Shown: one piece after another, positions 9,712 to 45,148 of the stretch
How the letters are laid out: every line of letters starts with the position of its first letter
How positions within the stretch are numbered: position 1 is the first letter of the stretch
NCBI GenBank assembly: GCA_964536925.1
Contig: CAZHZF010000009.1
Location: 1,724 to 65,723 of the forward strand
DNA length: 64,000 nt
Reading direction: 5' to 3'
Source of the DNA: an uncultured Dehalococcoidales bacterium
GTDB lineage: Bacteria; Chloroflexota; UBA6077; FW602-bin22
The notes under the pieces: model-generated
What the model saw: the letters and a program-made list of their open reading frames with translations, nothing else
Database searches by the model: none
Told to the model about the DNA's origin: nothing
Program-made: the position numbers and the translations under genes

Positions 9712-12210
9712 TTGGAGACGTCATCCAGGAATTCGGGACGACGTGAAACCGCGGAACCAGCCGACCTGCCGGACGAGCGCCCTTCCTCTGGTGGCTGGGG
9801 CCTGTTCCTCGTCACCGGGCTCGTCACGTTCTGCCTCGGCCTCCTCCTGATCGCCGTCTTTGGGATCACTCTTGCCCTGATCGGCGCACGATCTCTCGAC
9901 GGCGTAGGTGGGATCATCGACGCCGTCACGCGTGATCTGCCGCCACCCGAGGCGGCGGTGTCACGCGACGTCTTCAAGAGCTCCTTCATCTACGACCGCA
10001 ATGGTGAAGTCCTCTACGAGATCTTCGATCCAAATGGCGGCCGCAGGACGGTCATTCCAATCTCGGAGATCCCGCAGCACCTGGTCGCGGCGACGCTCGC
10101 CACCGAGGACGCGAACTTCTACCAGAATCCCGGCTTCGATCTCCGGGCCATGGTGCGCGCGGTCTGGCAGAACTTCCGCGGTCAGTCGGTGCTCTCCGGC
10201 GCCAGCACGATCACGCAGCAGCTTGTGAAGAACGCCCTGTTCGATCCAGAGGAGCGGGTCGAGCAGTCCTTTGAACGAAAAGCGAAAGAGATTGTCCTCG
10301 CCTACAAGCTCTCGCAGATGTACTCGAAGGATCAGATCCTCGAGCGCTACCTGAACGAGATCAACTACGGCAACCTCGCCTACGGGATCGAGGCAGCTGC
10401 CCGGACCTACTTCGACAAGCCAGCGCGTTCGCTCGACCTGGCCGAGGCAAGCCTTCTCGCCGGCCTGCCCCAGTTGCCCTCGGCCTACAACCCCTTCGTC
10501 AATCTGCGAGCCGCCAAGGAGCGTCAGGCGGAGGTCCTTGGCCTCATGGTGCGTCAGGGATACATCTCCGAGGAGATCGCCGAGGCGGCCCTTCGCCAGG
10601 AGTTGAAGTTCGCCCGGCTGCGCACGGACATCGAGGCTCCGCACTTCGTGATGTACGTGCGGGACATCCTGGAGCGCCGGTTCGGCGTGGCGCGGCTGTA
10701 CTCCGGTGGGTTCCGCGTATTCACCACTCTGGACCTGAACGCGCAGCGCGCCGCCGAGGAGGTGGCCCGATCCCACGTCGCTCGCATTCGCGATCACGAT
10801 GTGGGCAACGCCGCGATCGTGGCGATCAACCCGAACAGTGGCGAGGTGCTGGCGATGGTGGGGAGTGTCGATTACTTCGACAACGCCATCGCCGGCCAGG
10901 TCAACATGGCAAACTCGCTCCGTCAGCCGGGGTCGACACTCAAGCCCTTCACCTATGCAGCGGCGATCGCGCGCGGGACGCACTCCCCGGGGACCATCAT
11001 TCGTGATGAGCCCACGACCTTCCGCGGTGCGGCCGGCGAGCCGTACATCCCCCAGAATCCGGATGGTCGTTTCCGCGGACCGGTCACGCTCCGCTATGCG
11101 CTGGCGAACTCGCTGAACATCCCGGCGCTCAGAGTCGTCAGCGACGTGACGCCGCAGGCAATGATCGACCTGGCGCGTCGGATGGGGATCACGTCCCTTG
11201 GCGACGCGCGGCAATACGGCCTCACCGTCACGCTGGGGAGCGGCGAGGTACGACTGCTGGACCTGACCTATGCGTACACCCCTTTTGCGAACGGCGGATT
11301 CCAGATCGGCCAGCCGGTGGTCGATCCTCGGCCCGGAAGCCGCGAGTTTGAGCCGGCCGTGATTCTCAAGGTCGTCGACGCCGAAGGGCGCGTCCTTGAG
11401 GAGTACAGCCCGCGCCCCGGTAAGCGCGTGATCACTCCGCAGGTGGCCTGGCTCATCAGCGACATCCTCAGCGACGACGAGGCTAGATCGGACACCTACG
11501 GCAGGAACAGCCCGCTGGCGATCGGGCGGCCCGCCGCGGTCAAGACCGGGACCACCGATCGATACCACGATAGCTGGACGATCGGCTACACCCCGGATCT
11601 GGTCGTCGGCGTGTGGGTGGGCAATGCCGACAACAAACCGATGCGGCAGGTTCTCGGCGTTTCCGGCGCCGGTGCCATCTGGAACGGGACAATCCAGCAA
11701 CTTCTCAAGAACACTGCGCCGCGACCCTTTATCCGGCCCGCGGGCCTCGTGCAGGTCGCTATCGATCCACGCACCGGGCTGCGTCCGGCCGCGAACGGGC
11801 CGTCGCGCCTGGAATGGTTTCTCGAAGGTAACGTGCCCACCCAGTGGACCGAGATCCTGCGGTCTCCCACCGCCACAGTCTCCGCTTCGCGGCCGCCGAC
11901 TCCCGTACCGACGGCCACGCCACGTCCCACACCACCCGTGGCGAGGCCGGTGGAACCATCACCCACTCCGGTCGATCCGAACATCGCGACCGTACCGTCG
12001 GTCGTGGGCATGCCCGAGGCTGCCGCCCGGCGGGCGATAGAGCAGGCGGGGCTCAACAATACTTACACAAACTATCAATCCTCCGCGGATGTCGCGGATC
12101 AAGCCTACTTCGCGCGCTTCAGCGCCGGGCAGGTGGTGAGCCAGACGCCTCAGCCGGGTGCGCGCGCCCCGCGCGGCACCACTGTCTTCATCGCTGTCAA
12201 GCGGGGCTAA
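9712..12210 (+). CDS. Class A penicillin-binding protein (PBP1A-type transglycosylase/transpeptidase) with C-terminal PASTA-like domain
   Basis: GT51 motifs 'EDANFYQNPGFD', 'GASTITQQLVKN', 'RKAKEIVLAYKLS'. Transpeptidase motifs 'STLKPF', 'SLN', 'KTGTT'. A P/T-rich linker is followed by 'VPSVVGMPEAAARRAIEQAGL...'. TTG start with an N-terminal TM segment. Confidence 0.9.
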   Translation: METSSRNSGRRETAEPADLPDERPSSGGWGLFLVTGLVTFCLGLLLIAVFGITLALIGARSLDGVGGIIDAVTRDLPPPEAAVSRDVFKSSFIYDRNGEVLYEIFDPNGGRRTVIPISEIPQHLVAATLATEDANFYQNPGFDLRAMVRAVWQNFRGQSVLSGASTITQQLVKNALFDPEERVEQSFERKAKEIVLAYKLSQMYSKDQILERYLNEINYGNLAYGIEAAARTYFDKPARSLDLAEASLLAGLPQLPSAYNPFVNLRAAKERQAEVLGLMVRQGYISEEIAEAALRQELKFARLRTDIEAPHFVMYVRDILERRFGVARLYSGGFRVFTTLDLNAQRAAEEVARSHVARIRDHDVGNAAIVAINPNSGEVLAMVGSVDYFDNAIAGQVNMANSLRQPGSTLKPFTYAAAIARGTHSPGTIIRDEPTTFRGAAGEPYIPQNPDGRFRGPVTLRYALANSLNIPALRVVSDVTPQAMIDLARRMGITSLGDARQYGLTVTLGSGEVRLLDLTYAYTPFANGGFQIGQPVVDPRPGSREFEPAVILKVVDAEGRVLEEYSPRPGKRVITPQVAWLISDILSDDEARSDTYGRNSPLAIGRPAAVKTGTTDRYHDSWTIGYTPDLVVGVWVGNADNKPMRQVLGVSGAGAIWNGTIQQLLKNTAPRPFIRPAGLVQVAIDPRTGLRPAANGPSRLEWFLEGNVPTQWTEILRSPTATVSASRPPTPVPTATPRPTPPVARPVEPSPTPVDPNIATVPSVVGMPEAAARRAIEQAGLNNTYTNYQSSADVADQAYFARFSAGQVVSQTPQPGARAPRGTTVFIAVKRG

Positions 12211-32936: not shown

Positions 32937-33023
32937 ACGGGGGCCAGATGATGGCCGCCAGTTGCGCCGCCAGATGGTCCCTAACGCCTCCGCGGAGTCC
33001 TCGACTGGCCCCTCGCGGCGGTG

Positions 33024-33052
33024 ACTATAGATTGACGATAACTACCCGTCCA
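33024..33052 (-). promoter_or_regulatory. Candidate promoter for the LysM-NlpC/P60 gene
   Basis: Minus strand TGGACG (33052-33047), 17-nt spacer, TATAGT (33029-33024). GGAGG follows at 32991-32987. Confidence 0.3.
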
Positions 33053-33063
33053 GAAGGGGTCCC

Positions 33064-34503
33064 TCAGTCGAACAGCGCTGCGATCGCCGCGCACGTCGGC
33101 AACGCAGACTGGCGCCCCGCAAGCCATATCCGCTCACCAGCGAGCCATTCGTCGGTCTCTGCCAGCGCGGCTTCCACCTGACGGGGCGCGGTTCCCCCTG
33201 GGACGTCTCGAGCAGACAACGAGGAGGCCACGTCGATCTGCAACGCGTCCTCATCGAATTCCGGCGCGTGCGCGCGTAACTCCGCCAGGCTCAGGTCCGT
33301 CAGACGGCGTCCCCGGGTAACACAGTCCGCGACGATCCTCCCCACGATGTGATGCGCGATGCGGAAAGGGACACCGCGCGCGGCCAGGTGGTCCGCGTAG
33401 TCGGTCGCGAGTGCGAACCCCTCTCCGGCCGCTGCTGCGAGCCGCTCCTCATCGAACTCCGCGGTCGCCATCATCGGTGCCAGCACCGCCAGGGATACCG
33501 CCGCTGTATCGACCGCGTCGAAGAGCGCGGCCTTATCCTCCTGGAAGTCCTTGTTGTACGTCAGCACGGTCCCCTTCAGGACCGTGAGGATCGTCACGAT
33601 CTGGGCGATCGACCGCCCCGCCTTGCCGCGGATCAACTCCGCGTAGTCCGGATTCTTCTTCTGGGGCATGATGCTGGAGCCGGTGGAGAACGCGTCGGAG
33701 AGCCGGACGAAACCGAACTCCGTCGTCGACCACAGGACGATCTCCTCGGCGAGTCGTGACAGGTGAGTCATCAGCAGGGCGCAGGCGAAGATCGTCTCAA
33801 CCTGGTAGTCGCGGTCCGAGACCGCGTCCATGCTGTTGCGAGTCACGCCATCCATACCCAGATCCCGCGCCACCATCGATCGGTCGATCGGGTACGGCAC
33901 TCCCGCCAGGGCGCCCGACCCCAGCGGAGAGACGTTCGCGGTATCGAAACAGTCGTGGAGCCGCCGTACGTCGCGACGGAACATCTCCACGTAGGCCAGC
34001 AGGTGATGACCCAGGACTACAGGCTGGGCACGCTGCAGATGCGTGTACGCGGGCATCCGGGTTCGGCAATGGCGCCGGGCCTGGAGCAATAGCGTCGCGA
34101 TGACGTCGAGCGCCCGTCCGACGAGGATGAGGACGGCCTCGCGAGTCCACAGCCGAGTGTCGAGTGCGACCTGATCGTTCCGACTGCGCGCGGTATGCAG
34201 TTTCCCGGCTACATCGCCGATGAGTTCGTGGAGGCGCCCCTCGACGTTCCCGTGGATGTCCTCCCTTGCGGTGCGAAACACGAATTCCTCGCGATCGATC
34301 TCCGCGAGTACGCGCATCAGACCGCTGGCGATCGTCCGCCCCTCTTCGGCCCGGATGATCCCGGTGGCCACGAGCATCCGGCAGTGGGCGAGCGAGCCAA
34401 GGATGTCCTGATGAGCCAGACGTCGGTCGACCGAGATCGAGGCTCCGAACTCCACGGCAACGCGACTCGGCTCCTCGTTGAACCTGCCGCCCCAGAGTTC
34501 CAT
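33064..34503 (-). CDS. argH: Argininosuccinate lyase
   Basis: 'MELWGGRF', 'HTARSRNDQV', 'GSSIMPQKKNPD'. Confidence 0.95.
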   Translation of the reverse strand: MELWGGRFNEEPSRVAVEFGASISVDRRLAHQDILGSLAHCRMLVATGIIRAEEGRTIASGLMRVLAEIDREEFVFRTAREDIHGNVEGRLHELIGDVAGKLHTARSRNDQVALDTRLWTREAVLILVGRALDVIATLLLQARRHCRTRMPAYTHLQRAQPVVLGHHLLAYVEMFRRDVRRLHDCFDTANVSPLGSGALAGVPYPIDRSMVARDLGMDGVTRNSMDAVSDRDYQVETIFACALLMTHLSRLAEEIVLWSTTEFGFVRLSDAFSTGSSIMPQKKNPDYAELIRGKAGRSIAQIVTILTVLKGTVLTYNKDFQEDKAALFDAVDTAAVSLAVLAPMMATAEFDEERLAAAAGEGFALATDYADHLAARGVPFRIAHHIVGRIVADCVTRGRRLTDLSLAELRAHAPEFDEDALQIDVASSLSARDVPGGTAPRQVEAALAETDEWLAGERIWLAGRQSALPTCAAIAALFD

Positions 34504-34513
34504 CTCCCGGAGT

Positions 34514-35209
34514 CTAGGACGACCTCCCACTCTCACCGAGAGGCAGACGCCGCAGGATCGCGCGAACGATGACCCGAGTCATCCCGACGTCCTGCTCGAG
34601 ATCGATCCACGACTCGATCATCGCCGACTCCCGCGTGCGCCCGTCCCAGAATCCGGACAGCCGGCGCGGGTCCGCGGTAATCTGCACTACCGCGGTGCCG
34701 ATGACGCGCTCGGGTGAGACGTGAATCCAGTCGGCCCCCGCACGAATGCGCGTCTCGCTCGACGCACTCCGCGCCGAGATCTCGATCGATCGAACCGCGG
34801 TCTGATCCCGGTCGATGAAGCCGAAGTGAACCGCCGTTGCCCGGGGGGAGTTCTCGCGAGGACCCGGGTTCGATCGACGCCAGCGTGTCGGATCGACGCG
34901 AGACGGGGCCCACCTACGTGCACGTACTCCTGTGAACGGTTCATCGGGCGCTCCTCTGGCCGCGGCCAGGGCACGGCGATACGCCAGGTTGATCGCGCGC
35001 ATGTCGTCGGTTGCCGAGGGATGCGGGTTGACATCCGGGTGGTTCGCGCGGCACAGAGCACGAAAGGCGCGTCGGATCGCCGCCTCCGAGGCGCCGGGAT
35101 GCAGGCCCAGACGGGAGAGCGCGTCGGCGGATTCCATCTGATTCGTCACGGCTCGCGTGGACACCACGTGGTGCGGCAGAAGGTATCGGAGAGGCTGTCG
35201 AGCGCCCAT
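34514..35209 (-). CDS. J-domain protein with uncharacterised C-terminal domain
   Basis: 'LGLHPGASEAAIRRAFRALCRANHPDVN' carries the HPD motif. ATG 35209 has AGGA 7 nt upstream. The C-terminal ~130 aa are not recognised. Confidence 0.7.
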   Translation of the reverse strand: MGARQPLRYLLPHHVVSTRAVTNQMESADALSRLGLHPGASEAAIRRAFRALCRANHPDVNPHPSATDDMRAINLAYRRALAAARGAPDEPFTGVRARRWAPSRVDPTRWRRSNPGPRENSPRATAVHFGFIDRDQTAVRSIEISARSASSETRIRAGADWIHVSPERVIGTAVVQITADPRRLSGFWDGRTRESAMIESWIDLEQDVGMTRVIVRAILRRLPLGESGRSS

Positions 35210-35279
35210 CGGTGAATCCTGTACTCGTTCGTTTGGCGCCCGAGGGCCACATCGGCGAATACGATGGTAAGATCGACTG

Positions 35280-36566
35280 ATGGTCATTCCGCCCGGGGTC
35301 GCGGACACAGCCGAGTACCAGGGGATCATCGCCTGGCTGGAGGACCAGCGCCGACAGGACCGTGCCGAGATCGCCCGCATCGCGCTCGAAGTCGAGCGGC
35401 TGTTCTCGCTGGTGCGCGAGCAGGTCGGCGCGGGCGCTGAGTTGCGCGCGGGACTCGAGGCAGTGCGCAACACCCTCGTGCGATTCCCCCTCCTGGAAGA
35501 TGGAGTCCGCCAGGCCCGGGATCAGGTCGCCGCGTCGGTAGAGCGCCTCGACTCCCAGGGGCAGCAGCATGCACAGGCGATCCTTTCCCGGGCAGCCGAG
35601 GCGGATCGGGATCGTCGGCGCGTCGCTGAGGTCATCGGTGCCATCGATGAGATCCAGAACGCGATACAGGCCCAGAACGGCCGCATTCAGGTTGTGGGCG
35701 ACGAGGTACGGCGCGACCGTGCCGCGTTCATCGAGGTTCCGGCCACAGTCCACGCGCTCGATCAGCGCTTGGGCCAGATGGGCCATCGGCTCGAGCAACA
35801 GAACGAGGCGATCCGCCGGACTGAAGCCCACATCATCTCTGTCCAGGAGCGACTCGAGGCCCTGATCGCCGAGGTGGAGAAGGGCAATCACTGGCGCCAG
35901 CTCGCCGAGGTTCGATGGACTCGTCAGGCGGGCGAATGGCAGCAGAACCTGGTGAACTTCAAGGAGTCCATGGACGATCAGATCCGGCCCGCGCGCGTTG
36001 CCCTGGAACAGGTCGGCCAGGTCCGCGACGAGATCCGCGGACTGACCTCGGCGCTCTTCGAGCATTCTCACCGACTGGATGAACTCGTCGCAGCCCACAG
36101 TCGCCTCGACGGCATCACCTCGCAGCAGCGCGACCTTCTGGGGCGCGTCAGCCAGGTGGTCGACGCACAGCGACGCAGATTCGACGAACAGGCGAGCGCG
36201 CAGCTCCGTCTTGACGAGTCGATCGGTCGAGGAGTCGATGAGCGACAGGCGCTCGATCGCCGAGCCGACGAGCAGGCTCGGGCGATCGACGCCCTTCAGC
36301 AGGAGATGCGCAACCGGGTGGCGAGTATCGACATCCTGAGGAACGACCTCGAGACCCGGGAGGTCACGCTCCGATCGGATGCACAGGCACTTCGCGAGGC
36401 GTTCGATCGGCAGATCGAGTCCGTGCGGTTGGCGGTTGCGGAGACGGGCGTTCAGATCGCGGAGGCGCGACGCCTTCTCAATGCGTTTCTGATGCGGCTG
36501 GCCTCCGATGCCGAGGAGCATGCACGCGAACTCGACGAGGTGCCCGGCCGCAGCGGTCGCGCCTGA
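35280..36566 (+). CDS. 428-aa coiled-coil-rich protein, no recognisable domain
   Basis: E/R/Q/A/L-rich heptad-like sequence throughout, with high GC3 in this frame. The 555-aa antisense ORF is its shadow. The stop overlaps the next start (TGATG). Confidence 0.65.
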   Translation: MVIPPGVADTAEYQGIIAWLEDQRRQDRAEIARIALEVERLFSLVREQVGAGAELRAGLEAVRNTLVRFPLLEDGVRQARDQVAASVERLDSQGQQHAQAILSRAAEADRDRRRVAEVIGAIDEIQNAIQAQNGRIQVVGDEVRRDRAAFIEVPATVHALDQRLGQMGHRLEQQNEAIRRTEAHIISVQERLEALIAEVEKGNHWRQLAEVRWTRQAGEWQQNLVNFKESMDDQIRPARVALEQVGQVRDEIRGLTSALFEHSHRLDELVAAHSRLDGITSQQRDLLGRVSQVVDAQRRRFDEQASAQLRLDESIGRGVDERQALDRRADEQARAIDALQQEMRNRVASIDILRNDLETREVTLRSDAQALREAFDRQIESVRLAVAETGVQIAEARRLLNAFLMRLASDAEEHARELDEVPGRSGRA

Positions 36567-37240
36567 TGCCACCCAACCGCGGCACGCGAGCAGGCCAGGG
36601 CGCGGCACCGGCCGGAACTCCGCCTGCCGCGCCCACCGCGCGTCGGCAATCCTCCGGGACGATGGCTCTCACACTCGGGGCCGTCTTCCTGCTGTCGGTC
36701 GGGATCATCATCTACGCGTTGTGGTCGCTGCTTATGGGTGGCGACGAGATGGTGCTGCCGCCGATTCCGACCCGGGCACCGGTGTCTATCCCGGCCGGAG
36801 CCGTCCAGTTCAACAGCATCGAGGAGTTCGAGCGCGGATTCCGCGGTCGCACGAACGCCCCGTTCGCCCTGGTCGTTCGGAATGCGGACCTCACCACTCG
36901 CATCGCGGCTGAGACGCAGAAGAACCCGACGCTGCCGTTTCGGGTCACCCAGACGGAGATCCAGGACGGTCGCATCACCCTCATCGGCCAATTGCGGGTT
37001 CCAGGTGGATTCGATGCACCGGCACGCGTGGTAATCGAGCCGCGGGCGATCTCAGGTCGCGTTCAATACGATATCCCGGAGATCGACTTCGGGCCGATCC
37101 CCGCTCCCGGCCCGGCCCGAGACATCATCGCAGATACCATCGATCGATCGCTGTCGGACCTTCGGATCAGTGAGACCATGTTTGTCGAGGGTCTCGAGGC
37201 GCGCGGAGGCGCGCTCACGATCGTCGGGCGCTTGAGGTAG
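36566..37240 (+). CDS. Bitopic membrane protein (basic/Pro-rich N-tail, one TM, ~150-aa extracytoplasmic domain; DUF2993/LmeA-like impression)
   Basis: TM segment 'LTLGAVFLLSVGIIIYALWSLL'. Translationally coupled on both sides (TGATG upstream; a 3-nt gap to pbp2). Confidence 0.6.
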   Translation: MPPNRGTRAGQGAAPAGTPPAAPTARRQSSGTMALTLGAVFLLSVGIIIYALWSLLMGGDEMVLPPIPTRAPVSIPAGAVQFNSIEEFERGFRGRTNAPFALVVRNADLTTRIAAETQKNPTLPFRVTQTEIQDGRITLIGQLRVPGGFDAPARVVIEPRAISGRVQYDIPEIDFGPIPAPGPARDIIADTIDRSLSDLRISETMFVEGLEARGGALTIVGRLR

Positions 37241-37243
37241 GGC

Positions 37244-39154
37244 GTGGGATCCATCGAACCGATCCGCTCCATCGGCGAAGTGCCGGACGAGCCGACCGAT
37301 CCGTACCGGCGCCGCCTGCTGACTTTCGGAGCGATTGGAGCGGCCGCCTCGCTGGCGGTGCTCGGGCGCCTTGGCTTCGTCCAGTTACTCGGTTCGGATG
37401 TCTATCGGGCGGAAGCCGAACAGAATCGGACGTCCGAGCAGGCGCTTCCCGCCGATCGCGGATTGATCGTCGATCGGAACGAACTCCCTCTGGCGCGCAA
37501 TCAGGCGGCGTTCGATATCGGGGTGGTCCCGGCGAATCTCCCCACGCGAGAGGCGGAGATAGCGGCGGTGTTCGAGTACCTGGGGACAGTCCTGGGCCTG
37601 AACCCCGCGGACCTCCGTGCCGCGTTCATCAATCGCAAGCAGGCGAACCCGTTCTCCTTCGTTCCGGTCGTGCGAGCTCAGTCACCCGAGGTCGCGCACC
37701 GCATTCAAGAGCACCTGCCGCGCTTGCCGGGAGTCGATGTCCGTGCACGTGCCCGGCGGGAGTACGTCGATCCGCTCGTGACAGCACACGTCACCGGCTA
37801 TGTGGGACCTGTTACTACGGAGGAACTCGGGGCGGCCCGTGATGCGGCGGGCGCGCGATACGACCTCGACGACACCATCGGCAAGATGGGCGTGGAATAC
37901 ACCAGGGAATGGGACCTGCGCGGACTGTCCGGCGTACGTCGGACGGAGGTTGACGTCGAGGGGCGATTCAAACGGCTCATCGGCGAGGAGCCGTCACGGG
38001 CAGGTCGCACCGTCCGGGTGACGATCGATTTGCCTTTCCAGCGCGAGGTTACGCGGCTGCTTCAGCAAGGGATCGCCGCCCACGAGGCCGCGAGCGTGGT
38101 CGCGCTCGACCCGCGTAATGGCGACGTGATCGCCATGGTCCATCTTCCATCGTTCGATCCGAACACTCTCGTCGTCGGATTGAGCGATGCGGAGTTCGAC
38201 CATCTGCAACGTACCGGTGATGTCTTCCTGAATGGTGCCATCACCTCGGCCTATTCTCCGGGGTCCTTATTCAAGGTGGTGACCGCGATCGCGGGGTTGC
38301 ACGAAGCCGTGATCCAGGACAACGCCCAACTTGACTGTCAGGGTGAACTCGTCTTTCCGTCGCGGCTCACCCCTGGTGGGGCGGCTCGGTTTCCGTGCTG
38401 GGCGAGGCATGGCACGCAGGATTGCGCCAGTGCACTGGCGAACTCGTGCAACACGTTCTTCTACCAGGTCGGGGCGGGGGATCCCCGTGGGGATTGGAAC
38501 GGCCTGGGGATCGAGCGACTTGCCCGGTGGGCGCGCGCCTTGGGGCTCGGGACACCCACCGGCATCGATCTCCCCGGCGAAGTGGCGGGCCTCGTGCCCG
38601 ATCCGGAATGGAAGCGCCGCGAGCGGCGGGAGGACTGGTTCAAAGGGGACTCATACAACGTGGCTATCGGCCAGGGCTTCGTCACGGTCACTCCCCTTCA
38701 GGCCGCCAATCTGATCGCAACCGTGGCGAACGGCGGTCGCGTTCTGCGGCCGCGCATCGTGCGCGACGTGCACGATCACGGCACAACCGCGCCAGGTCAG
38801 CGCCGACCTGTGGTCATTCGTGACCTGGGACTCGACCCGGCACACCTCCAGATCGTTCGCGCGGGTCTGCATGCATCGATGCGTCTCGGCCGCTCGCCGT
38901 TGGGCTCACCTATCGCCGGCACGGCATGGCGCTCGGGGTTGCGCGATCTCCCCGTTGCGGGGAAGACGGGCACCGCCGAATGGGTGACATCCGCGGGAGA
39001 GCGCCGGACCCACGGGTGGTTCGCGGGTTGGGCGCCCTTCGATGATCCGCAGCTCGCCGTTGCGGTCTTCCTAAGGAATGGCCCCGGGGGGACCGAAGCG
39101 GCGCGGCTCGCACGGGACATGTTCGCGTTCTACTTCGGCGTGGCGGAGGCCTGA
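37244..39154 (+). CDS. mrdA: Penicillin-binding protein 2 (elongation-specific class B transpeptidase)
   Basis: N-terminal TM, 'SLFKVVT' (SxxK), 'SCN' (SxN), 'KTGTAE' (KTG). Confidence 0.9.
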   Translation: MGSIEPIRSIGEVPDEPTDPYRRRLLTFGAIGAAASLAVLGRLGFVQLLGSDVYRAEAEQNRTSEQALPADRGLIVDRNELPLARNQAAFDIGVVPANLPTREAEIAAVFEYLGTVLGLNPADLRAAFINRKQANPFSFVPVVRAQSPEVAHRIQEHLPRLPGVDVRARARREYVDPLVTAHVTGYVGPVTTEELGAARDAAGARYDLDDTIGKMGVEYTREWDLRGLSGVRRTEVDVEGRFKRLIGEEPSRAGRTVRVTIDLPFQREVTRLLQQGIAAHEAASVVALDPRNGDVIAMVHLPSFDPNTLVVGLSDAEFDHLQRTGDVFLNGAITSAYSPGSLFKVVTAIAGLHEAVIQDNAQLDCQGELVFPSRLTPGGAARFPCWARHGTQDCASALANSCNTFFYQVGAGDPRGDWNGLGIERLARWARALGLGTPTGIDLPGEVAGLVPDPEWKRRERREDWFKGDSYNVAIGQGFVTVTPLQAANLIATVANGGRVLRPRIVRDVHDHGTTAPGQRRPVVIRDLGLDPAHLQIVRAGLHASMRLGRSPLGSPIAGTAWRSGLRDLPVAGKTGTAEWVTSAGERRTHGWFAGWAPFDDPQLAVAVFLRNGPGGTEAARLARDMFAFYFGVAEA

Positions 39155-39156
39155 CT

Positions 39157-40263
39157 CTGGAGACTCGAGCGTGGCGTCACTTCGACTATCCGCTGATCAT
39201 CGGAACATTCGCCCTGTTAGGCCTCGGTGTCGTGATGATCTTCAGCGCGACGCAATCCTCCGCCGATGGCATCCGTGTGACACCTCTGGTGATTCGCCAT
39301 CTGGTCTACCTGGCGATAGGAACGGGTTTTCTCTTTCTCTTCGCGTTCACTGACTATCGCGGCCTAGCGTCGCTCGCCTACCCGATGTACGGCATAGGGC
39401 TCCTGGCCCTCATCATCGTGCTGATTCTTGGTCGAATGGAGCATGGATCCACACGCTGGATCAACCTCTTCGATCTGATCCAGATTCAGCCGTCGGAGCC
39501 GGCCAAGCTCGCAACAGTCCTGGCGCTGGCCCGGTTCTTCTCGACCCACCGGGAGTCGATCCATCGTCCACGCACCGTTGCGCTCTCGCTGGTGCTCGTC
39601 GCCGTGCCCGCGTTGCTCGTGGTGGTGGAACCGGACCTGGGAACCTCACTGGTGTACTTCGCGATCTGGGCCGGGGTCGCCTTCATTGCCGGCGTTCCGC
39701 TGTGCTACTTCCTCATCCTCGGCGTCGCCGCGGTTGGCCTGGCACGACTCATCTGGCCGCTGGCGCCGAGATACATGCAGGATCGCCTCACCATCTTCCT
39801 GGATCCCGAAGCTGATCCGACGGGACAGGGGTACAACATCATCCAGGCCGCGATCTCGGTCGGATCGGGAGGGCTGTTCGGTCGAGGATTCCTCAGCGGC
39901 ACCCAGAGCCAACTCGAGTTCCTGCGCGTTCGCTACGCCGACTTCATCTTCTCGGTCCTTGCCGAGGAACTCGGATTCATTGGCGCCGGAATCCTGTTCG
40001 TTCTCGTGACGATTGTCGTCCTGCGCGGCCTTCGGGCAGCGGCGATCGCATCGGAGCCTTTCGGTCGCCTGATCACCGTGGGCGTCGTCAGTATGCTGCT
40101 GTTTCAGTTTGTCGTGAACGTCGGCATGAACGTTCGGCTCCTGCCGGTCACCGGCATTCCGCTGCCTTTCATCAGTTACGGGGGCAGCTCCCTGATCACG
40201 TTCCTGGCCGGGATCGGATTGGTGCAGAGCATTACCATGCGCCACCAGAAACTCGAGTTCTGA
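39157..40263 (+). CDS. rodA: SEDS glycosyltransferase RodA (proposed CTG start)
   Basis: 'RWINLFDLIQIQPSEPAKL', 'GLFGRGFLSGTQSQLEFL..RYADFIFSVLAEELGF', 'TGIPLPFISYGGSS'. The conserved TM1 'WRHFDYPLIIGTFALLGLGVVMIFSAT' lies upstream of the track start at 39232. GGAGG 39145-39149 sits 7 nt before CTG 39157. Confidence 0.85.
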   Translation: METRAWRHFDYPLIIGTFALLGLGVVMIFSATQSSADGIRVTPLVIRHLVYLAIGTGFLFLFAFTDYRGLASLAYPMYGIGLLALIIVLILGRMEHGSTRWINLFDLIQIQPSEPAKLATVLALARFFSTHRESIHRPRTVALSLVLVAVPALLVVVEPDLGTSLVYFAIWAGVAFIAGVPLCYFLILGVAAVGLARLIWPLAPRYMQDRLTIFLDPEADPTGQGYNIIQAAISVGSGGLFGRGFLSGTQSQLEFLRVRYADFIFSVLAEELGFIGAGILFVLVTIVVLRGLRAAAIASEPFGRLITVGVVSMLLFQFVVNVGMNVRLLPVTGIPLPFISYGGSSLITFLAGIGLVQSITMRHQKLEF

Positions 40264-40281
40264 GCTCAGGACGGCCCCTCC

Positions 40282-41646
40282 ATGACGTACGTTCCCCACA
40301 CCGCGCTCGACCGCACGGAGATGCTCGCGACCATTGGCGTTCGATCGATCGAGGACCTCTTCGCGGACATTCCCGCCGATCGGCGCATCCACCATCTGGA
40401 TCTCCCGGATCCCCTTTCGGAGATGGAGACTGCCCGCCTGATGGCGCGGATCGCCGGTGAGAATCAGCCCCTCACCAATCTGGCCAGCTTCCTGGGCGCG
40501 GGTGGCTATCGCCACTTCATCCCATCGGTTGTGGCCCACATCACCGGCCGGAGCGAGTTCTACACCGCCTACACCCCCTATCAGCCAGAGGTCAGCCAGG
40601 GCACACTCCAGGTCATCTACGAGTATCAATCGATGGTCGCCGAACTGACCGGCATGGATGTGGCCAACGCCTCGATGTACGACGGCGCGAGCGCGCTCGG
40701 CGAAGCCGTCCTGATGGCGGCGGCCGTGACGCGCCGCAAACGCGTCGCGATCGCCTCTTCGGTGCACCCGCAGTACCGGGCCGTGGCCGAGACCTATGCG
40801 AGCGGACCGGATATCGACGTCCGCATGATTGCCCAAACACATGCCGGCGCGTTCGACGCGCGCCTCAGCGTGGCGGCGGCGACGGCATCTCTGGATGATT
40901 CGTGCGCCGCGCTCATCGTTCAGCAACCGAACTTCCTCGGGGCGATCGAAGATCTGCGCGCGCTCGCTGATGCGGCGCACCGCGTGGGCGCTCTCCTCAT
41001 CGTGGCCGTGAACCCGATCGCGCTCGCTCTGCTGGAGTCGCCCGGCAGCGCCGGAGCCGACATCGTGGTCGGCGAGGGCCAGCCTCTCGGCATCCCGCTG
41101 TCGTTTGGCGGGCCGTGGCTCGGCATCTTCGCGGCGCGCAATGAGTTCGTCCGCCAGATGCCGGGGCGCATCGTGGGTATCACCACCGACGTGGATGGGC
41201 GGCGTGGACTGGTCCTCACACTTCAGTCGCGCGAGCAGCACATCAGGCGAGAGAGGGCCACCTCGAACATCTGCACCAATCAGGCCCTGTGCGCTCTGGC
41301 CTCCACGGTCTATCTCGCGACGGTCGGACGAATCGGCTTGCGAACAGTGGCCCGACTCTGTCTCGAGCGCGCCCACGACGCGGCGAGGCGCATCGGGGCT
41401 CTGCCGGGCGTTCGACTCGCCTGCACGTCACCCTTCTTTCACGAGTTCGTCGTTCGGACGCCGCTGCCGGGCACGGAACTCCTCCACCGCCTGCGGGCAG
41501 ACGGCGTAATTGGCGGCTACCCGCTCGGTCGCGACTACCACGACTTGCAGGACGCGATCCTGGTGTGTGTCACCGAGGCGAACACAACCGAAGAGATCGA
41601 TCTACTGGTCGGCGCGATCGGCCGACACGTCCCGGGAGCGAACTGA
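40282..41646 (+). CDS. gcvPA: Glycine dehydrogenase (decarboxylating) subunit 1
   Basis: 'FLGAGGYRHFIP', 'YTPYQPE.SQG.LQ', 'GGP..G'. 454 aa. Confidence 0.95.
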   Translation: MTYVPHTALDRTEMLATIGVRSIEDLFADIPADRRIHHLDLPDPLSEMETARLMARIAGENQPLTNLASFLGAGGYRHFIPSVVAHITGRSEFYTAYTPYQPEVSQGTLQVIYEYQSMVAELTGMDVANASMYDGASALGEAVLMAAAVTRRKRVAIASSVHPQYRAVAETYASGPDIDVRMIAQTHAGAFDARLSVAAATASLDDSCAALIVQQPNFLGAIEDLRALADAAHRVGALLIVAVNPIALALLESPGSAGADIVVGEGQPLGIPLSFGGPWLGIFAARNEFVRQMPGRIVGITTDVDGRRGLVLTLQSREQHIRRERATSNICTNQALCALASTVYLATVGRIGLRTVARLCLERAHDAARRIGALPGVRLACTSPFFHEFVVRTPLPGTELLHRLRADGVIGGYPLGRDYHDLQDAILVCVTEANTTEEIDLLVGAIGRHVPGAN

Positions 41647-43112
41647 TGACCGATCGATTGCTGTTCGAGATCTCGCACCCCGGCCGCACGGGGGTCAGCC
41701 TCCCCGAGCCGGAGGACACGATACCCCTCGCCGATCTCCTGCCGGGAGTGGCGCTGCGCGAGGAACTGCGGCTTCCAGAGGTCGCCCAGTTGGACGTGGT
41801 CCGTCATTTCGTGCGGCTCTCGCAGAAGAACTTCTCGATCGATACGAACTTCTATCCGCTCGGGTCCTGCACGATGAAGTACAACCCGAAGATCCACGAG
41901 GACGTGGTGCGACTGGATGGGTTCGCCCACCTTCATCCTGCGCAGGACGAGGACGACGTCCAGGGCGCGCTCCGATTGATGGCGGAACTGGAGGGGTACC
42001 TCGCCGAGATCGCGGGGATGAAGGCGGTCTCGCTGCAACCCGCGGCGGGCGCCCACGGCGAACTCACCGGCGTCCTGATCATGCGCGCGTTCCATCGCGA
42101 GCGCGGGGACGCGGCGCGACGCCGCATTCTCGTGCCTGACAGCGCCCACGGCACGAACCCGGCTACCGCGGCCATCTGCGGGTACGAAGTCACGCCGATC
42201 CGCTCCGATGAGCGCGGGGGAGTCGATCTCAGCGATCTGGCCGGCAAATTGGGGAGCGATGTCGCCGGTCTGATGGTGACGATCCCCAGCACACTTGGGC
42301 TCTTCGATGAGGGAATCGCGACGGTCGCGGACATGGTGCACCGGGCGGGCGGCCTGGTGTACTGCGACGGCGCGAACCTGAACGCGGTCGTCGGCCGGGC
42401 ACGGTTTGGCGATCTCGGCGGAGACATCATGCACTTCAACCTCCACAAGACCTTCACCACGCCGCACGGCGGGGGTGGACCTGGCGCGGGGCCGGTGGCG
42501 GTACGGGCCGACCTCGAGCGCTACCTCCCGGTCCCCAGGATCGTGCCGCACCCGGATCGCGAGGGCGTCTATACCTGTGAAACCGCCCGCCCCCTGTCGG
42601 TAGGGCGCGTGCGGTCGTTCTTTGGAAACTTCGGCATGCTGGTCCGCGCCTATACGTACATCCGCATGCTGGGCTACGCCGGGCTCGCCGATGTCTCCGG
42701 ATGCGCGGTGTTGAACGCCAACTATCTCCGCGTGAGACTGTCGGACGTCTACGACGTACCGTACGATCGCATCTGCATGCACGAGTTCGTGATGTCTGCC
42801 CGCCGCCAGAAGGCTGTGAGCGGGGTCCGGGCGCTCGACATCGCGAAGCGACTGATCGATTTCGGCTATCACCCGCCCACAATCTACTTCCCCCTCGTCG
42901 TCGAGGAGGCGCTCATGATCGAACCGACCGAAACCGAAAATCGCGAGACCCTCGACGCCTTTGTGGACACGATGCGACGCATCGCGACCGAGGCCAGCGA
43001 CACACCGGAGGTCCTGCAGGAGGCGCCCCACGGTACGCCGGTGCGCAGGCTCGACGAGGTCACGGCGGCTCGTCGTCCCAACGTGCGGTATCAGGCAGTG
43101 GCGGCTCCGTGA
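41646..43112 (+). CDS. gcvPB: Glycine dehydrogenase (decarboxylating) subunit 2
   Basis: 'MTDRLLFE.S.PGR', 'PLGSCTMKYNP', PLP site 'HFNLHKTF..PHGGGGPG'. The ATG overlaps the gcvPA stop (TGATG). Confidence 0.95.
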   Translation: MTDRLLFEISHPGRTGVSLPEPEDTIPLADLLPGVALREELRLPEVAQLDVVRHFVRLSQKNFSIDTNFYPLGSCTMKYNPKIHEDVVRLDGFAHLHPAQDEDDVQGALRLMAELEGYLAEIAGMKAVSLQPAAGAHGELTGVLIMRAFHRERGDAARRRILVPDSAHGTNPATAAICGYEVTPIRSDERGGVDLSDLAGKLGSDVAGLMVTIPSTLGLFDEGIATVADMVHRAGGLVYCDGANLNAVVGRARFGDLGGDIMHFNLHKTFTTPHGGGGPGAGPVAVRADLERYLPVPRIVPHPDREGVYTCETARPLSVGRVRSFFGNFGMLVRAYTYIRMLGYAGLADVSGCAVLNANYLRVRLSDVYDVPYDRICMHEFVMSARRQKAVSGVRALDIAKRLIDFGYHPPTIYFPLVVEEALMIEPTETENRETLDAFVDTMRRIATEASDTPEVLQEAPHGTPVRRLDEVTAARRPNVRYQAVAAP

Positions 43113-43190
43113 TCCGGTCGGTGCCGATGACGCACGCCGTAGGCGCTCGGGGATGAGTTCAGGGGTGGGTCCCCGTGTGGAGGCGCGTGA

Positions 43191-43919
43191 TTGATCGGCG
43201 CGGGTCGCAAAGTGCATCCGGCGCGCGGCGCCATCCACCTCCCCCCGTGGCGCCATCGTCGAGAGATCGTCTCCCTCAATGAGGCGGATGTCGACCTTCG
43301 CGATACGCGCGCCGTCGACGACCTGGTCGTCGCAGCCAGTGATGCGGGCGCGGAACTCGTGGTGTTTTCGACAGCCGTACGGGCCGCTGGAGAGCCCCTC
43401 AGCGCCGCCGGATTCGCCCCGATCGAAGAGATCCTCGAACTGGAGCGACCATCCGACGGACTCATCCGCGGCGACATAGTGCCGACCGTCGCGGTTGAGA
43501 CCTTCTTGAACGACCTCGTTCGACTCGATCATGCCTGTTTCCCCTGGCTCTGGTGGAACAGTCCTGAGGAGATGGCGCGTTACGTCCAGAGCCCCGACGC
43601 GCTTGCCTGGCTCACGGGACCGATCGACGGGACACTCGCCGTGGACGCCTACATCGCAGTGACGCGGTCCGGAACCACCGGGTATATCGATCGCCTCGCC
43701 GTGGCTCCCGCGCGCCGCGGCCGGGGCCTGGGCGCGGCACTGACCCTTCACGCGATCGATCATCTCGCGCGATCGGGTGCCCGCCGCATCGCGCTGACGA
43801 CACAGCACGATAACGTTCGGGCCCAGAATCTGTATTCCCGCCTCGGATTTCGCCCCAATGGTTTCCGCCTCACGATCTGGGGACGCTGGATCGGTCAACC
43901 GCGCGATAGGACGCCCTGA
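43191..43919 (+). CDS. GNAT-family N-acetyltransferase
   Basis: 'YIDRLAVAPARRGRGLGAALTLHAI' (Q/RxxGxG/A acetyl-CoA motif), 'NVRAQNLYSRLGF'. Start uncertain (TTG 43191). Confidence 0.75.
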   Translation: MIGAGRKVHPARGAIHLPPWRHRREIVSLNEADVDLRDTRAVDDLVVAASDAGAELVVFSTAVRAAGEPLSAAGFAPIEEILELERPSDGLIRGDIVPTVAVETFLNDLVRLDHACFPWLWWNSPEEMARYVQSPDALAWLTGPIDGTLAVDAYIAVTRSGTTGYIDRLAVAPARRGRGLGAALTLHAIDHLARSGARRIALTTQHDNVRAQNLYSRLGFRPNGFRLTIWGRWIGQPRDRTP

Positions 43920-45148
43920 TGAAGGTTCTGATGCTCTCCTGGGAGTTCCCACCGCACAACGTGGGGGGGCTCGGCAAACACGTCATGGAACTGGTGCCGG
44001 CTCTGGCAAGAGCGGGCGTGGAGGTTCACCTCCTGACTCCCGGTTGGAGTGGCACGAGCGGCGAGGAGGTGGTGGAGCAGGTCGCGACTGTGGGCGCGGA
44101 CATCGCGCCCGCCACGACCACGATCTTCAGGGTCGAGCCGCCGTCGGAGGACATCGCGGACTTCTTCACGCACGCGATGCGGATGAACGTCGCGATCGGC
44201 GATGCGGGACGTCAGTTGCTCCGCGACGGGACCTACGATCTGATCCACGCGCACGACTGGCTGGTCGCTTTCGCGGGGGTTGGCCTCAAGCATGAGTTCC
44301 GCGTGCCGCTGGTCGCCACAATCCACGCGACGGAGTACGGCCGCAACCGAGGTCTTCCCACGGGTGATGTGCCCAGGGCCATCCATAACGTGGAGTGGTG
44401 GCTGACTTACGAGGCGTGGCGGGTCATCTGTTGCAGCCGTTACATGGCGAGCGAGATCCAGAGCGTCTTCGCGACGCCCGCGGACAAACTAGACGTCATC
44501 CCGAATGGCGTCGATCCCGGCCGTTTCGATGCGCTCGCCGGAGTCGATCTGACCGAGTTTCGCCGGCAGTACGCGAGCGATGATGAATCGGTGGTCTACT
44601 GTGTCGGACGCGTCGTTCACGAGAAGGGCGTGCACGTCCTCGTCGAGGCGATGCCGCATATCCTCGCGACCAGGCCCAGAACCAAGTTCGTGATCGCGGG
44701 CACGGGCGGGTCCCTGGCGCAGTGCCGTGCCCGCGTGCAGGAACTCGGTCTCGGCGAGAAGGTCTACTTCACCGGATTCATCTCCGACGAGGCGCGGGAT
44801 CGGCTCTTTCGCGTGGCGGACGTGGCGGTCTTTCCCAGTCTGTACGAGCCGTTCGGCATCGTGGCGATCGAGGCGATGGCGGCGGGGACTCCGGTTGTGG
44901 CGTCGGCCGTGGGCGGACTTGACGAGGTGGTTGACCTCCACGAAACCGGCATCAAGGTGTACCCCGACGATCCACGATCCATCGCCTGGGGCGTCGTCCA
45001 TACGCTGGACCATCCGGACTGGGCCGAGGCACGGGCCGCGAATGCGAGCCGGGTCGTCCGCGAGCGTTTCAACTGGGAAGGCGTCGCCCGTGACACCGTC
45101 GCTGTCTACGAGCGCGTCGTCGCCGAGAGGCGCCGCACGGACTGGTAA
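43919..45148 (+). CDS. GT-B glycosyltransferase (GT4 / glycogen-synthase-like)
   Basis: 'MKVLMLSWEFPPHNVGGLGKHV', 'HAHDW', 'PSLYEPFGIVAIEAMAAGTPVVAS..GGL.E'. Confidence 0.85.
   Translation: MKVLMLSWEFPPHNVGGLGKHVMELVPALARAGVEVHLLTPGWSGTSGEEVVEQVATVGADIAPATTTIFRVEPPSEDIADFFTHAMRMNVAIGDAGRQLLRDGTYDLIHAHDWLVAFAGVGLKHEFRVPLVATIHATEYGRNRGLPTGDVPRAIHNVEWWLTYEAWRVICCSRYMASEIQSVFATPADKLDVIPNGVDPGRFDALAGVDLTEFRRQYASDDESVVYCVGRVVHEKGVHVLVEAMPHILATRPRTKFVIAGTGGSLAQCRARVQELGLGEKVYFTGFISDEARDRLFRVADVAVFPSLYEPFGIVAIEAMAAGTPVVASAVGGLDEVVDLHETGIKVYPDDPRSIAWGVVHTLDHPDWAEARAANASRVVRERFNWEGVARDTVAVYERVVAERRRTDW

Follow-up and report, generated by a model that had tools for sequence, protein, structure and literature searches.

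In the canonical elongasome operon the genes follow each other as mreB-mreC-mreD-pbp2(mrdA)-rodA(mrdB), where MreC has one transmembrane helix, a coiled coil and beta-barrel domains, and MreD is a polytopic protein. The subject of this paper is another arrangement, found in a lake Chloroflexota genome, that of an uncultured Dehalococcoidales bacterium, in a stretch of 64,000 nucleotides (nt) of contig CAZHZF010000009.1 (assembly GCA_964536925.1, positions 1,724 to 65,723 of the forward strand), which is called the window throughout. Four tightly coupled genes of the plus strand stand there in the order CC-TM-pbp2-rodA according to the list of open reading frames (ORFs); CC denotes a coiled-coil protein and TM a bitopic membrane protein. 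The locus shares with the canonical operon an orthologous pbp2 next to an orthologous rodA, and mreB and mreC are encoded in the genome; unlike in the canonical operon, the set is split, mreBCD standing alone and pbp2-rodA being headed by CC (followed by TM in the window's family). Elsewhere in the class, in other orders, mreB-mreC-pbp2 has stayed together. The best reading of the locus, a tentative one, is that CC is a scaffold or adaptor, and TM an accessory, of the RodA-PBP2 synthase.

For CC, a comparison is offered by coiled-coil proteins that are associated with wall synthases. GpsB of Firmicutes is a soluble coiled-coil adaptor docking a short cytoplasmic tail of a penicillin-binding protein (PBP). 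DivIVA is reported to interact with RodA in Corynebacterium glutamicum (PMC4285798). The present locus resembles these systems in the translational coupling of its coiled-coil gene to pbp2-rodA and in a conserved peptide at the cytoplasmic N-terminus of PBP2. In contrast to DivIVA and GpsB, CC is an adaptor by prediction, is far longer (428 amino acids, aa), has its own motifs, stands beside selB in most other Chloroflexota and has no sequence relation to either protein; the Pfam matches of CC and of four homologues (E<=1 or 0.1) include neither DivIVA nor GpsB. Crescentin, FilP/Scy and Ccrp are, like CC, all-helical heptad-repeat rods restricted to certain lineages, however the matches to the crescentin rod model were insignificant (E 0.0055-0.07, 12-16 bits, cut-off 100).

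The counterparts of TM are LmeA (DUF2993, PF11209) of mycobacteria and YpmS (DUF2140, PF09911) of Firmicutes, which have the same N-terminal membrane anchor and, outside the cytoplasm, the same kind of alpha/beta domain (about 150-190 aa). In mycobacteria LmeA maintains the mannosyltransferase MptA, a glycosyltransferase using polyprenyl-phosphate-sugar (PMC7643837), and ypmS affects the shedding of capsular polysaccharide (PMC13537807). A TULIP lipid-transfer domain is predicted for both DUF2140 and DUF2993/LmeA, the former being described as a family of monoderm Bacilli (PMC6791001). The family around TM matches both Pfam models, but the window's TM itself lies below detection for both. TM differs from LmeA and YpmS also in being coupled to a SEDS/class B PBP pair and not to a GT-C mannosyltransferase, in occurring in Chloroflexota and not in Bacilli, and in that its lipid handling is a prediction.

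The operon and its separation from mreBCD

The identities of PBP2 and RodA are secure by profile comparison. PBP2 matches TIGR03423 over its full length with 516.7 bits (curated cut-off 455) and also matches PF03717 and PF00905, for the PBP dimerisation and transpeptidase domains; RodA, whose gene adjoins pbp2, matches TIGR02210 over its full length with 344 bits (curated cut-off 336.7) and scores 297.9 bits against PF01098. By these matches the two proteins are a canonical SEDS/class B PBP peptidoglycan synthase.

The coupling of the four genes and the junctions between them had been described in an earlier note on this DNA, and both are confirmed by the ORF list and by direct reading. The stop and start codons of CC and TM overlap (Table 1), the TM stop codon (TAG 37238-37240) is separated from the start codon of pbp2 (GTG 37244) by a 3-nt gap, GGC, and only 2 nt lie between the pbp2 stop codon (TGA 39152-39154) and CTG 39157. 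The first ATG, GTG or TTG in the rodA frame is GTG 39232, where the ORF listing begins RodA, and the frame upstream of it, from 39157, reads L-ETRAWRHFDYPLIIGTFALLGLGVVMIFSAT. A start at 39232 would remove the conserved N-terminus of RodA together with its first transmembrane helix. Since the frame from 39157 matches the N-terminus of RodA in relatives (L-ETRAWRHFD aligns with METRAWRHFD or METRIWRHFD), the true start is CTG 39157, GTG 39232 being too late.

The tightness of the junctions goes beyond chance, since relatives at only 33-44% identity repeat it, with gaps of 0 nt and 2 nt in locus L006 and a 1-nt overlap and an 11-nt gap in L008, and metagenomic contigs of relatives keep the order CC-TM-PBP2-RodA-gcvPA-gcvPB, again with tight junctions. 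The gcvPA-gcvPB genes begin 18 nt past rodA, and in L009 they overlap with it by 4 nt. Neither an Rfam element nor a terminator-like site was found within 34400-43342, and Rfam, promoter and terminator scans of 33000-44000 returned neither an internal terminator nor any riboswitch, and in particular none for glycine ahead of gcvP. The four genes are one tightly coupled unit which probably runs on into gcvPA-gcvPB, and the latter probably belong to the same transcript as rodA as functionally unrelated passengers.

The absence of mreBCD from the window was noted correctly before. Elsewhere in the genome two mreB genes were found, on contigs C20 and C13, and mreC lies at the very end of C13 beside mreB; a search for MreD was less successful, as no match was found in the assembly, where mreD would fall past the end of C13. 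In a genome of the same family (G395) and another of the same order (G251) mreB-mreC is followed by a polytopic mreD-like gene of 159-166 aa and then by unrelated genes, not by pbp2. Among 15 loci examined outside the order, in other orders of the class and across the phylum, 11 have mreB-mreC ahead of the best PBP2 match (L089, L090, L092, L093, L097-L103). As mreBCD stands alone inside the order and mreB-mreC-pbp2 is kept elsewhere, the canonical operon was split in the order: judged by gene order, pbp2-rodA is detached there from mreB-mreC-mreD, which persists as an operon of its own, and is now headed by CC.

It could be assumed that CC and TM have replaced MreC and MreD, whose slots upstream of pbp2 they fill, all the more as no MreD match was obtained in the assembly; a functional analogue of MreC/MreD was indeed among the earlier proposals. 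This is hardly credible. The mreC gene is present next to mreB where C13 ends, which would put mreD beyond the assembled sequence of that contig, and the two related genomes possess the mreB-mreC-mreD-like operon as a stand-alone unit. TM has one transmembrane helix and an alpha/beta domain, and it matches no Pfam or NCBIfam model at E<=1, hence neither MreC (PF04085) nor MreD (PF04093), so that it is not simply a diverged form of either. With mreC and the mreD-like gene present in the window's family, the replacement is for practical purposes refuted.

Table 1. Features of the operon and its downstream neighbours (positions of the window)
Feature	Position	Strand	Remarks
CC	35280..36566	+	428-aa ORF, coiled-coil protein
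CC/TM stop/start overlap TGATG	36564..36568	+	read directly
TM	36566..37240	+	224-aa ORF, bitopic membrane protein
PBP2, MrdA-type class B penicillin-binding protein	37244..39154	+	636 aa, GTG start
PBP2 N-terminal motif codons (EPIRSIGE)	37256..37279	+	candidate docking peptide for a cytoplasmic partner
GGAGG Shine-Dalgarno inside pbp2 3' end	39145..39149	+	7 nt before CTG 39157
RodA, SEDS glycosyltransferase	39157..40263	+	368 aa, CTG start
gcvPA + gcvPB, glycine dehydrogenase subunits	40282..43112	+	ORFs, co-directional with rodA

Across much of the order the glycine cleavage genes appear to be co-transcribed with genes of wall synthesis.

CC and the PBP2 motif across Chloroflexota

The description of CC as a coiled coil without a recognisable domain holds: no Pfam or NCBIfam family reaches its cut-off with CC (the same is true for TM), and the hydrophobic periodicity of CC peaks at 3.51 residues, which is a heptad signal. 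Close homologues of 39-44% identity are nearly all exactly 428 aa long. They have in common the invariant blocks WLEDQRRQDR (residues 19-28), QWRQLxxxRWxRQxxEWQ (QWRQLAxxRWTRQxxEWQ at residues ~204-221 of CC) and QRRRFDEQASAQLRLDE (residues 297-313), as well as invariant prolines at 70, 154 and 237. Internal repeats of ~83 residues, which the prolines seemed to mark, were rejected, as hhalign between the segments gave at most 59% probability and no significance. By its sequence features CC is a soluble cytoplasmic heptad-repeat coiled-coil rod, and profile matches place it in an undescribed family spread throughout Chloroflexota. The members of this family are all-helical heptad rods of ~400-445 aa with the N-terminal pattern W-L-[DE]-[DE]-[EQ]-R-[RK]-x-D, and the window's CC fits this description. 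In a sample of 401 Chloroflexota genomes, which includes 22 from the window's order, the broad CC profile matches 85 (E<=1e-6). Since ~90% of the sample has PBP2 (the exceptions appear limited to a few families), comparing the presence of CC with that of peptidoglycan is uninformative.

CC homologues carry the JGI label 'chromosome segregation ATPase', and weak NCBIfam matches of CC to the coiled-coil arms of SMC and Rad50 do exist. Nevertheless, a chromosome-segregation protein of SMC/Rad50 type is a most improbable identity for CC, because its score against TIGR02168 is 38 bits, far under the cut-off of 567, the matches are confined to the arm regions, and its 428 residues comprise no ATPase head or hinge and no Walker A/B or signature motifs. 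A sequence profile search of the PDB with CC likewise returned generic coiled coils only. The SMC identity was rejected, sub-cut-off and arm-only matches of this kind being coiled-coil noise.

Within the order, 20 of the 22 genomes have a CC homologue (22-29% identity) on the contig of pbp2-rodA, upstream of these genes. In one genome (G363, family f10) CC-thrC-thrB and lysC-pbp2 are found on two separate contigs, and a 69%-complete metagenome-assembled genome (G355) gave no CC match. The CC gene is directly upstream of pbp2, often translationally coupled, in families f2, f4, f5, f6 and f7 (the gap is 3 nt in L075, and in L074 the genes overlap by 11 nt), and CC-PBP2-RodA is kept where gcvP is not adjacent (L071, L072, L077). 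Family f6 has a class A PBP gene ahead of CC, immediately so in three genomes and one gene further away in two more. The synteny with pbp2-rodA expected in relatives was found, order-wide for CC and within the window's family for TM. Three genomes (G007, G243, G323) have open frames of 963-1104 aa; these were considered as CC-PBP2 fusions and rejected, as stops separate the genes.

Next to synteny, the best hint of a cytoplasmic partner is a sequence motif at the N-terminus of PBP2. Its consensus in the order is EPI[RTHS]SL[DNE][DE]P, followed by an acidic stretch, basic residues and the transmembrane helix, and it is illustrated by the N-termini MGSIEPIRSIGEVPDEP (window), MSIEPITSLNDPIDED (L075) and LEPIHSLDEPFDE (L077). 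The motif was found in PBP2 of families f1, f2, f4-f7 and f10, and every locus with CC, or CC and TM, directly before PBP2 carries it. It is absent from three PBP2s of f3 and f9, from 15 of 15 examined PBP2s outside the order and from a PBP2 paralogue of the same genome (on contig C28). In the six-frame translation of the genome the motif occurs once, on PBP2 alone, and the idea of its occurrence on other proteins as a sign of a shared adaptor was rejected.

On the tentatively preferred reading, CC would be a cytoplasmic scaffold or adaptor of the RodA-PBP2 synthase, and its likeliest contact would be this peptide of the PBP2 cytoplasmic tail, in a manner comparable to the docking of wall synthases by DivIVA and GpsB. 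A shared role of CC and TM in wall growth is plausible, gene order being the greater part of its basis. There are several observations which weigh against it. In f3 and f9, CC and pbp2 are separated by thrC and/or lysC. Outside the order selB is placed directly after CC in 14 of 26 loci examined (Pfam confirmed it as a SelB-type factor), nuoN is often placed before, and CC is met also beside thrC (CC then thrC in G340 and L012) or mutS (divergent from CC in family f28); moreover, the lineages with CC-selB keep pbp2 in the canonical mreB-mreC-pbp2 (L097, L099, L102). The unrelated gcvPA-gcvPB are coupled equally tightly downstream of rodA. The PBP2 motif persists in G363, where lysC precedes pbp2, and it may be a single gain in the order, confounded with phylogeny. 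Since the neighbours of CC outside the order are mostly nuoN and selB, with pbp2 in mreB-mreC-pbp2, the link between CC and pbp2-rodA is specific to the order. The suggestion of the earlier note that these are lineage-specific components is weakened for CC, whose family is present in many other Chloroflexota, usually between nuoN and selB. As selB, thrC, lysC and gcvP share similarly tight synteny, gene order by itself has limited weight as proof.

The same contexts lead to an alternative, in which the synteny was inherited without shared function: CC would be a housekeeping coiled coil of Chloroflexota unrelated to peptidoglycan, its gene standing at the head of any operon that happens to follow, and pbp2-rodA would have landed behind it once, in the ancestor of the order, and stayed there. 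This is nearly as likely as the preferred reading, if somewhat short of an even chance, in view of the distribution of CC over 85 of the 401 genomes and many families, its commonest context (nuoN)-CC-selB (f23, f42, f47, f49, f59, f65, f73, f76, f81), its adjacency to thrC (G340, G363, L012, G203/G020) and the fact that gcvPA-gcvPB travel in the pbp2-rodA unit. On the other hand, the adjacency of CC and pbp2 has outlasted the divergence of CC to 22-29% identity, even without gcvP linkage, f6 has recruited a class A PBP next to CC, the cytoplasmic motif of PBP2 is specific to the order, and the adjacency of CC and TM recurs in a distant genome (G061), which is considered below.

If the link of CC and TM to the synthase is real, a non-homologous, Chloroflexota-specific pair would join the proteins that position or stabilise SEDS/class B PBP synthases (MreC/D, RodZ, DivIVA, GpsB), a coiled-coil family of about one fifth of the sampled Chloroflexota would receive its first functional context, and TULIP-like proteins of the DUF2140/LmeA type would be tied to peptidoglycan synthesis. 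If it is not real, the locus is a caution, as an order-wide, translationally coupled gene order then includes the unrelated gcvP, thrC, lysC and selB.

The pair of CC and selB is of separate interest. A SelB-type gene follows the CC homologue after ~5-70 nt in at least nine other Chloroflexota families, often with nuoN preceding (L064, L065, L067, L069, L079, L107, L110-L114, L118, L121, L122). Judged by these loci CC-selB is a deep, conserved gene pair.

TM and the DUF2140/LmeA family

TM starts with a basic N-terminal tail with a conserved MPPxR. In an AlphaFold2 (AF2) model built from a deep alignment (mean pLDDT 86.6) this disordered tail is followed by a helix at residues 30-57 and an alpha/beta domain at ~80-223, in agreement with the single transmembrane segment and outside domain proposed before. 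The architecture predicted by the model, an N-terminal membrane anchor with an extracytoplasmic domain, is that of DUF2140/LmeA proteins. A profile made from six TM sequences of the family found 619 cluster representatives (E<=1e-3, with E down to 1e-23), most of them single-TM proteins of ~185-200 aa. Among 111 aligned members of the TM family 65 match PF09911 (DUF2140; best 6e-12) and 51 match PF11209 (LmeA; best 4e-9), in both cases at E<=0.01. TM can thus be regarded, with good support at the family level, as a membrane-anchored, outward-facing and divergent member of the DUF2140/LmeA (TULIP-like) superfamily.

Solved TULIP structures include BPI, CETP and YceB. With a first TM model of low confidence the top PDB match of Foldseek was CETP (2obd; probability 0.90, TM-score 0.23), which is not significant. 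Some points have to be set against the role of TM in the preferred reading: the window's TM matches neither PF09911 nor PF11209 at E<=0.01, so its link to them is transitive; Foldseek found no PDB match at E<=1e-3 for its confident AF2 model; and in other genomes TM homologues occupy varied contexts.

As an accessory of the RodA-PBP2 synthase TM would act at the outer face of the membrane, where it might handle a polyprenyl-linked lipid (lipid II or undecaprenyl phosphate), or else it might stabilise the polytopic glycosyltransferase, as mycobacterial LmeA maintains MptA. A TM homologue is present in 74 of the 401 sampled genomes, and its position between CC and pbp2 is limited to the window's family (G000, G267, G395 and metagenomic relatives). 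In the distant genome G061 the CC and TM homologues overlap by 11 nt with no pbp2 nearby; by estimate ~0.04 such adjacencies are expected by chance. Together with CC-pbp2 in the order and TM-pbp2 in the family, this pair closes a triangle of pairwise adjacencies.

TM could also be a general envelope protein handling lipids (TULIP-like), which was inserted between CC and pbp2 in the window's family alone and is mechanistically unconnected with the synthase. This appears rather unlikely, however it would agree with the occurrence of most TM homologues away from pbp2, and with the metabolic nature of the other genes inserted at the CC/pbp2 site (thrC, lysC). It agrees less with the translational coupling of both TM junctions, which is conserved in relatives of the family at 33-39% identity, or with the existence of the second, distant CC-TM pair in G061, and the characterised relatives of TM act on pathways of polyprenyl-linked envelope polymers (PMC7643837, PMC13537807).

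Another neighbourhood of the TM family was observed in family f23, where a wall protein of DUF348-G5 (RpfB/YabE-like) type comes after the TM homologue (L018, L023, L028-L033, L035, L037-L042), and the flanking genes look scpB- and rluB-like on inspection of the sequence by eye. This conserved neighbourhood links the DUF2140/LmeA-like family to the cell wall in another lineage.

Divisome genes and further neighbours

PF01098 detects a single SEDS gene, rodA, in each of G000, G267 and G395, and two to four matches in other families of the order. In G044 the dcw cluster (L127) has the order ftsI-murF-mraY-murD-ftsW-murG-murC-murB-ddl-ftsQ-ftsA-ftsZ, and in the window's family (C11:21000-33400 of the own genome; L128 of G395) it has the order rsmH-murF-mraY-murD-murG-murC-murB-ddl-ftsZ. 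In the own genome rsmH abuts murF; there and in G395 murD abuts murG and ddl is ~100-550 nt from ftsZ, and because of the closeness of murD to murG and of ddl to ftsZ the loss is visible in synteny and is not an assembly gap. In tblastn searches of the own genome FtsA and FtsQ of G044 found nothing but a weak match of FtsA to MreB, FtsW matched only the rodA of the window, and FtsI only the three other class B PBPs; FtsZ is present. According to gene order and these searches, the window's family has lost ftsW, ftsI, ftsQ and ftsA from the dcw cluster and kept ftsZ, and as ftsW is lost RodA is the sole SEDS protein there. The family with the TM insertion is the one whose only SEDS protein is RodA of the window's type.

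It can be speculated, with small probability, that RodA-PBP2 is the only SEDS/class B PBP synthase left in this family, and that CC, bound to the EPIRSL peptide, and TM are accessories by which a single synthase could work in elongation guided by MreB as well as in septation guided by FtsZ. If true, this would be a hitherto unknown minimal machine of wall synthesis, in which divisome adaptors have been replaced by non-homologous factors. The divisome loss with ftsZ kept offers a natural test case of how one RodA-PBP2 pair builds the whole wall.

Two further class B PBPs are encoded in the genome, at C28:10435-12294 (minus strand) and C57:10923-13223 (plus strand). The former is a solo PBP2 paralogue, 43% identical and without the N-terminal motif, whose neighbours are a class IV aminotransferase-like gene and a 451-aa ORF; the latter has 766 aa and a long N-terminal extension. 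A class A PBP is found in the window itself at 9844-11838 (plus strand; C9:11567-13561), in the orientation of CC and ~23 kb before it, and is 46% identical to the class A PBP located directly upstream of CC in f6. Divergent from CC, on the minus strand at 34514-35210 of the window, there are genes of a J-domain protein and two small ORFs (~91-132 and 110-116 aa), and this set is kept in relatives of the family (L006, 6248-7824; L009, 109-1493).

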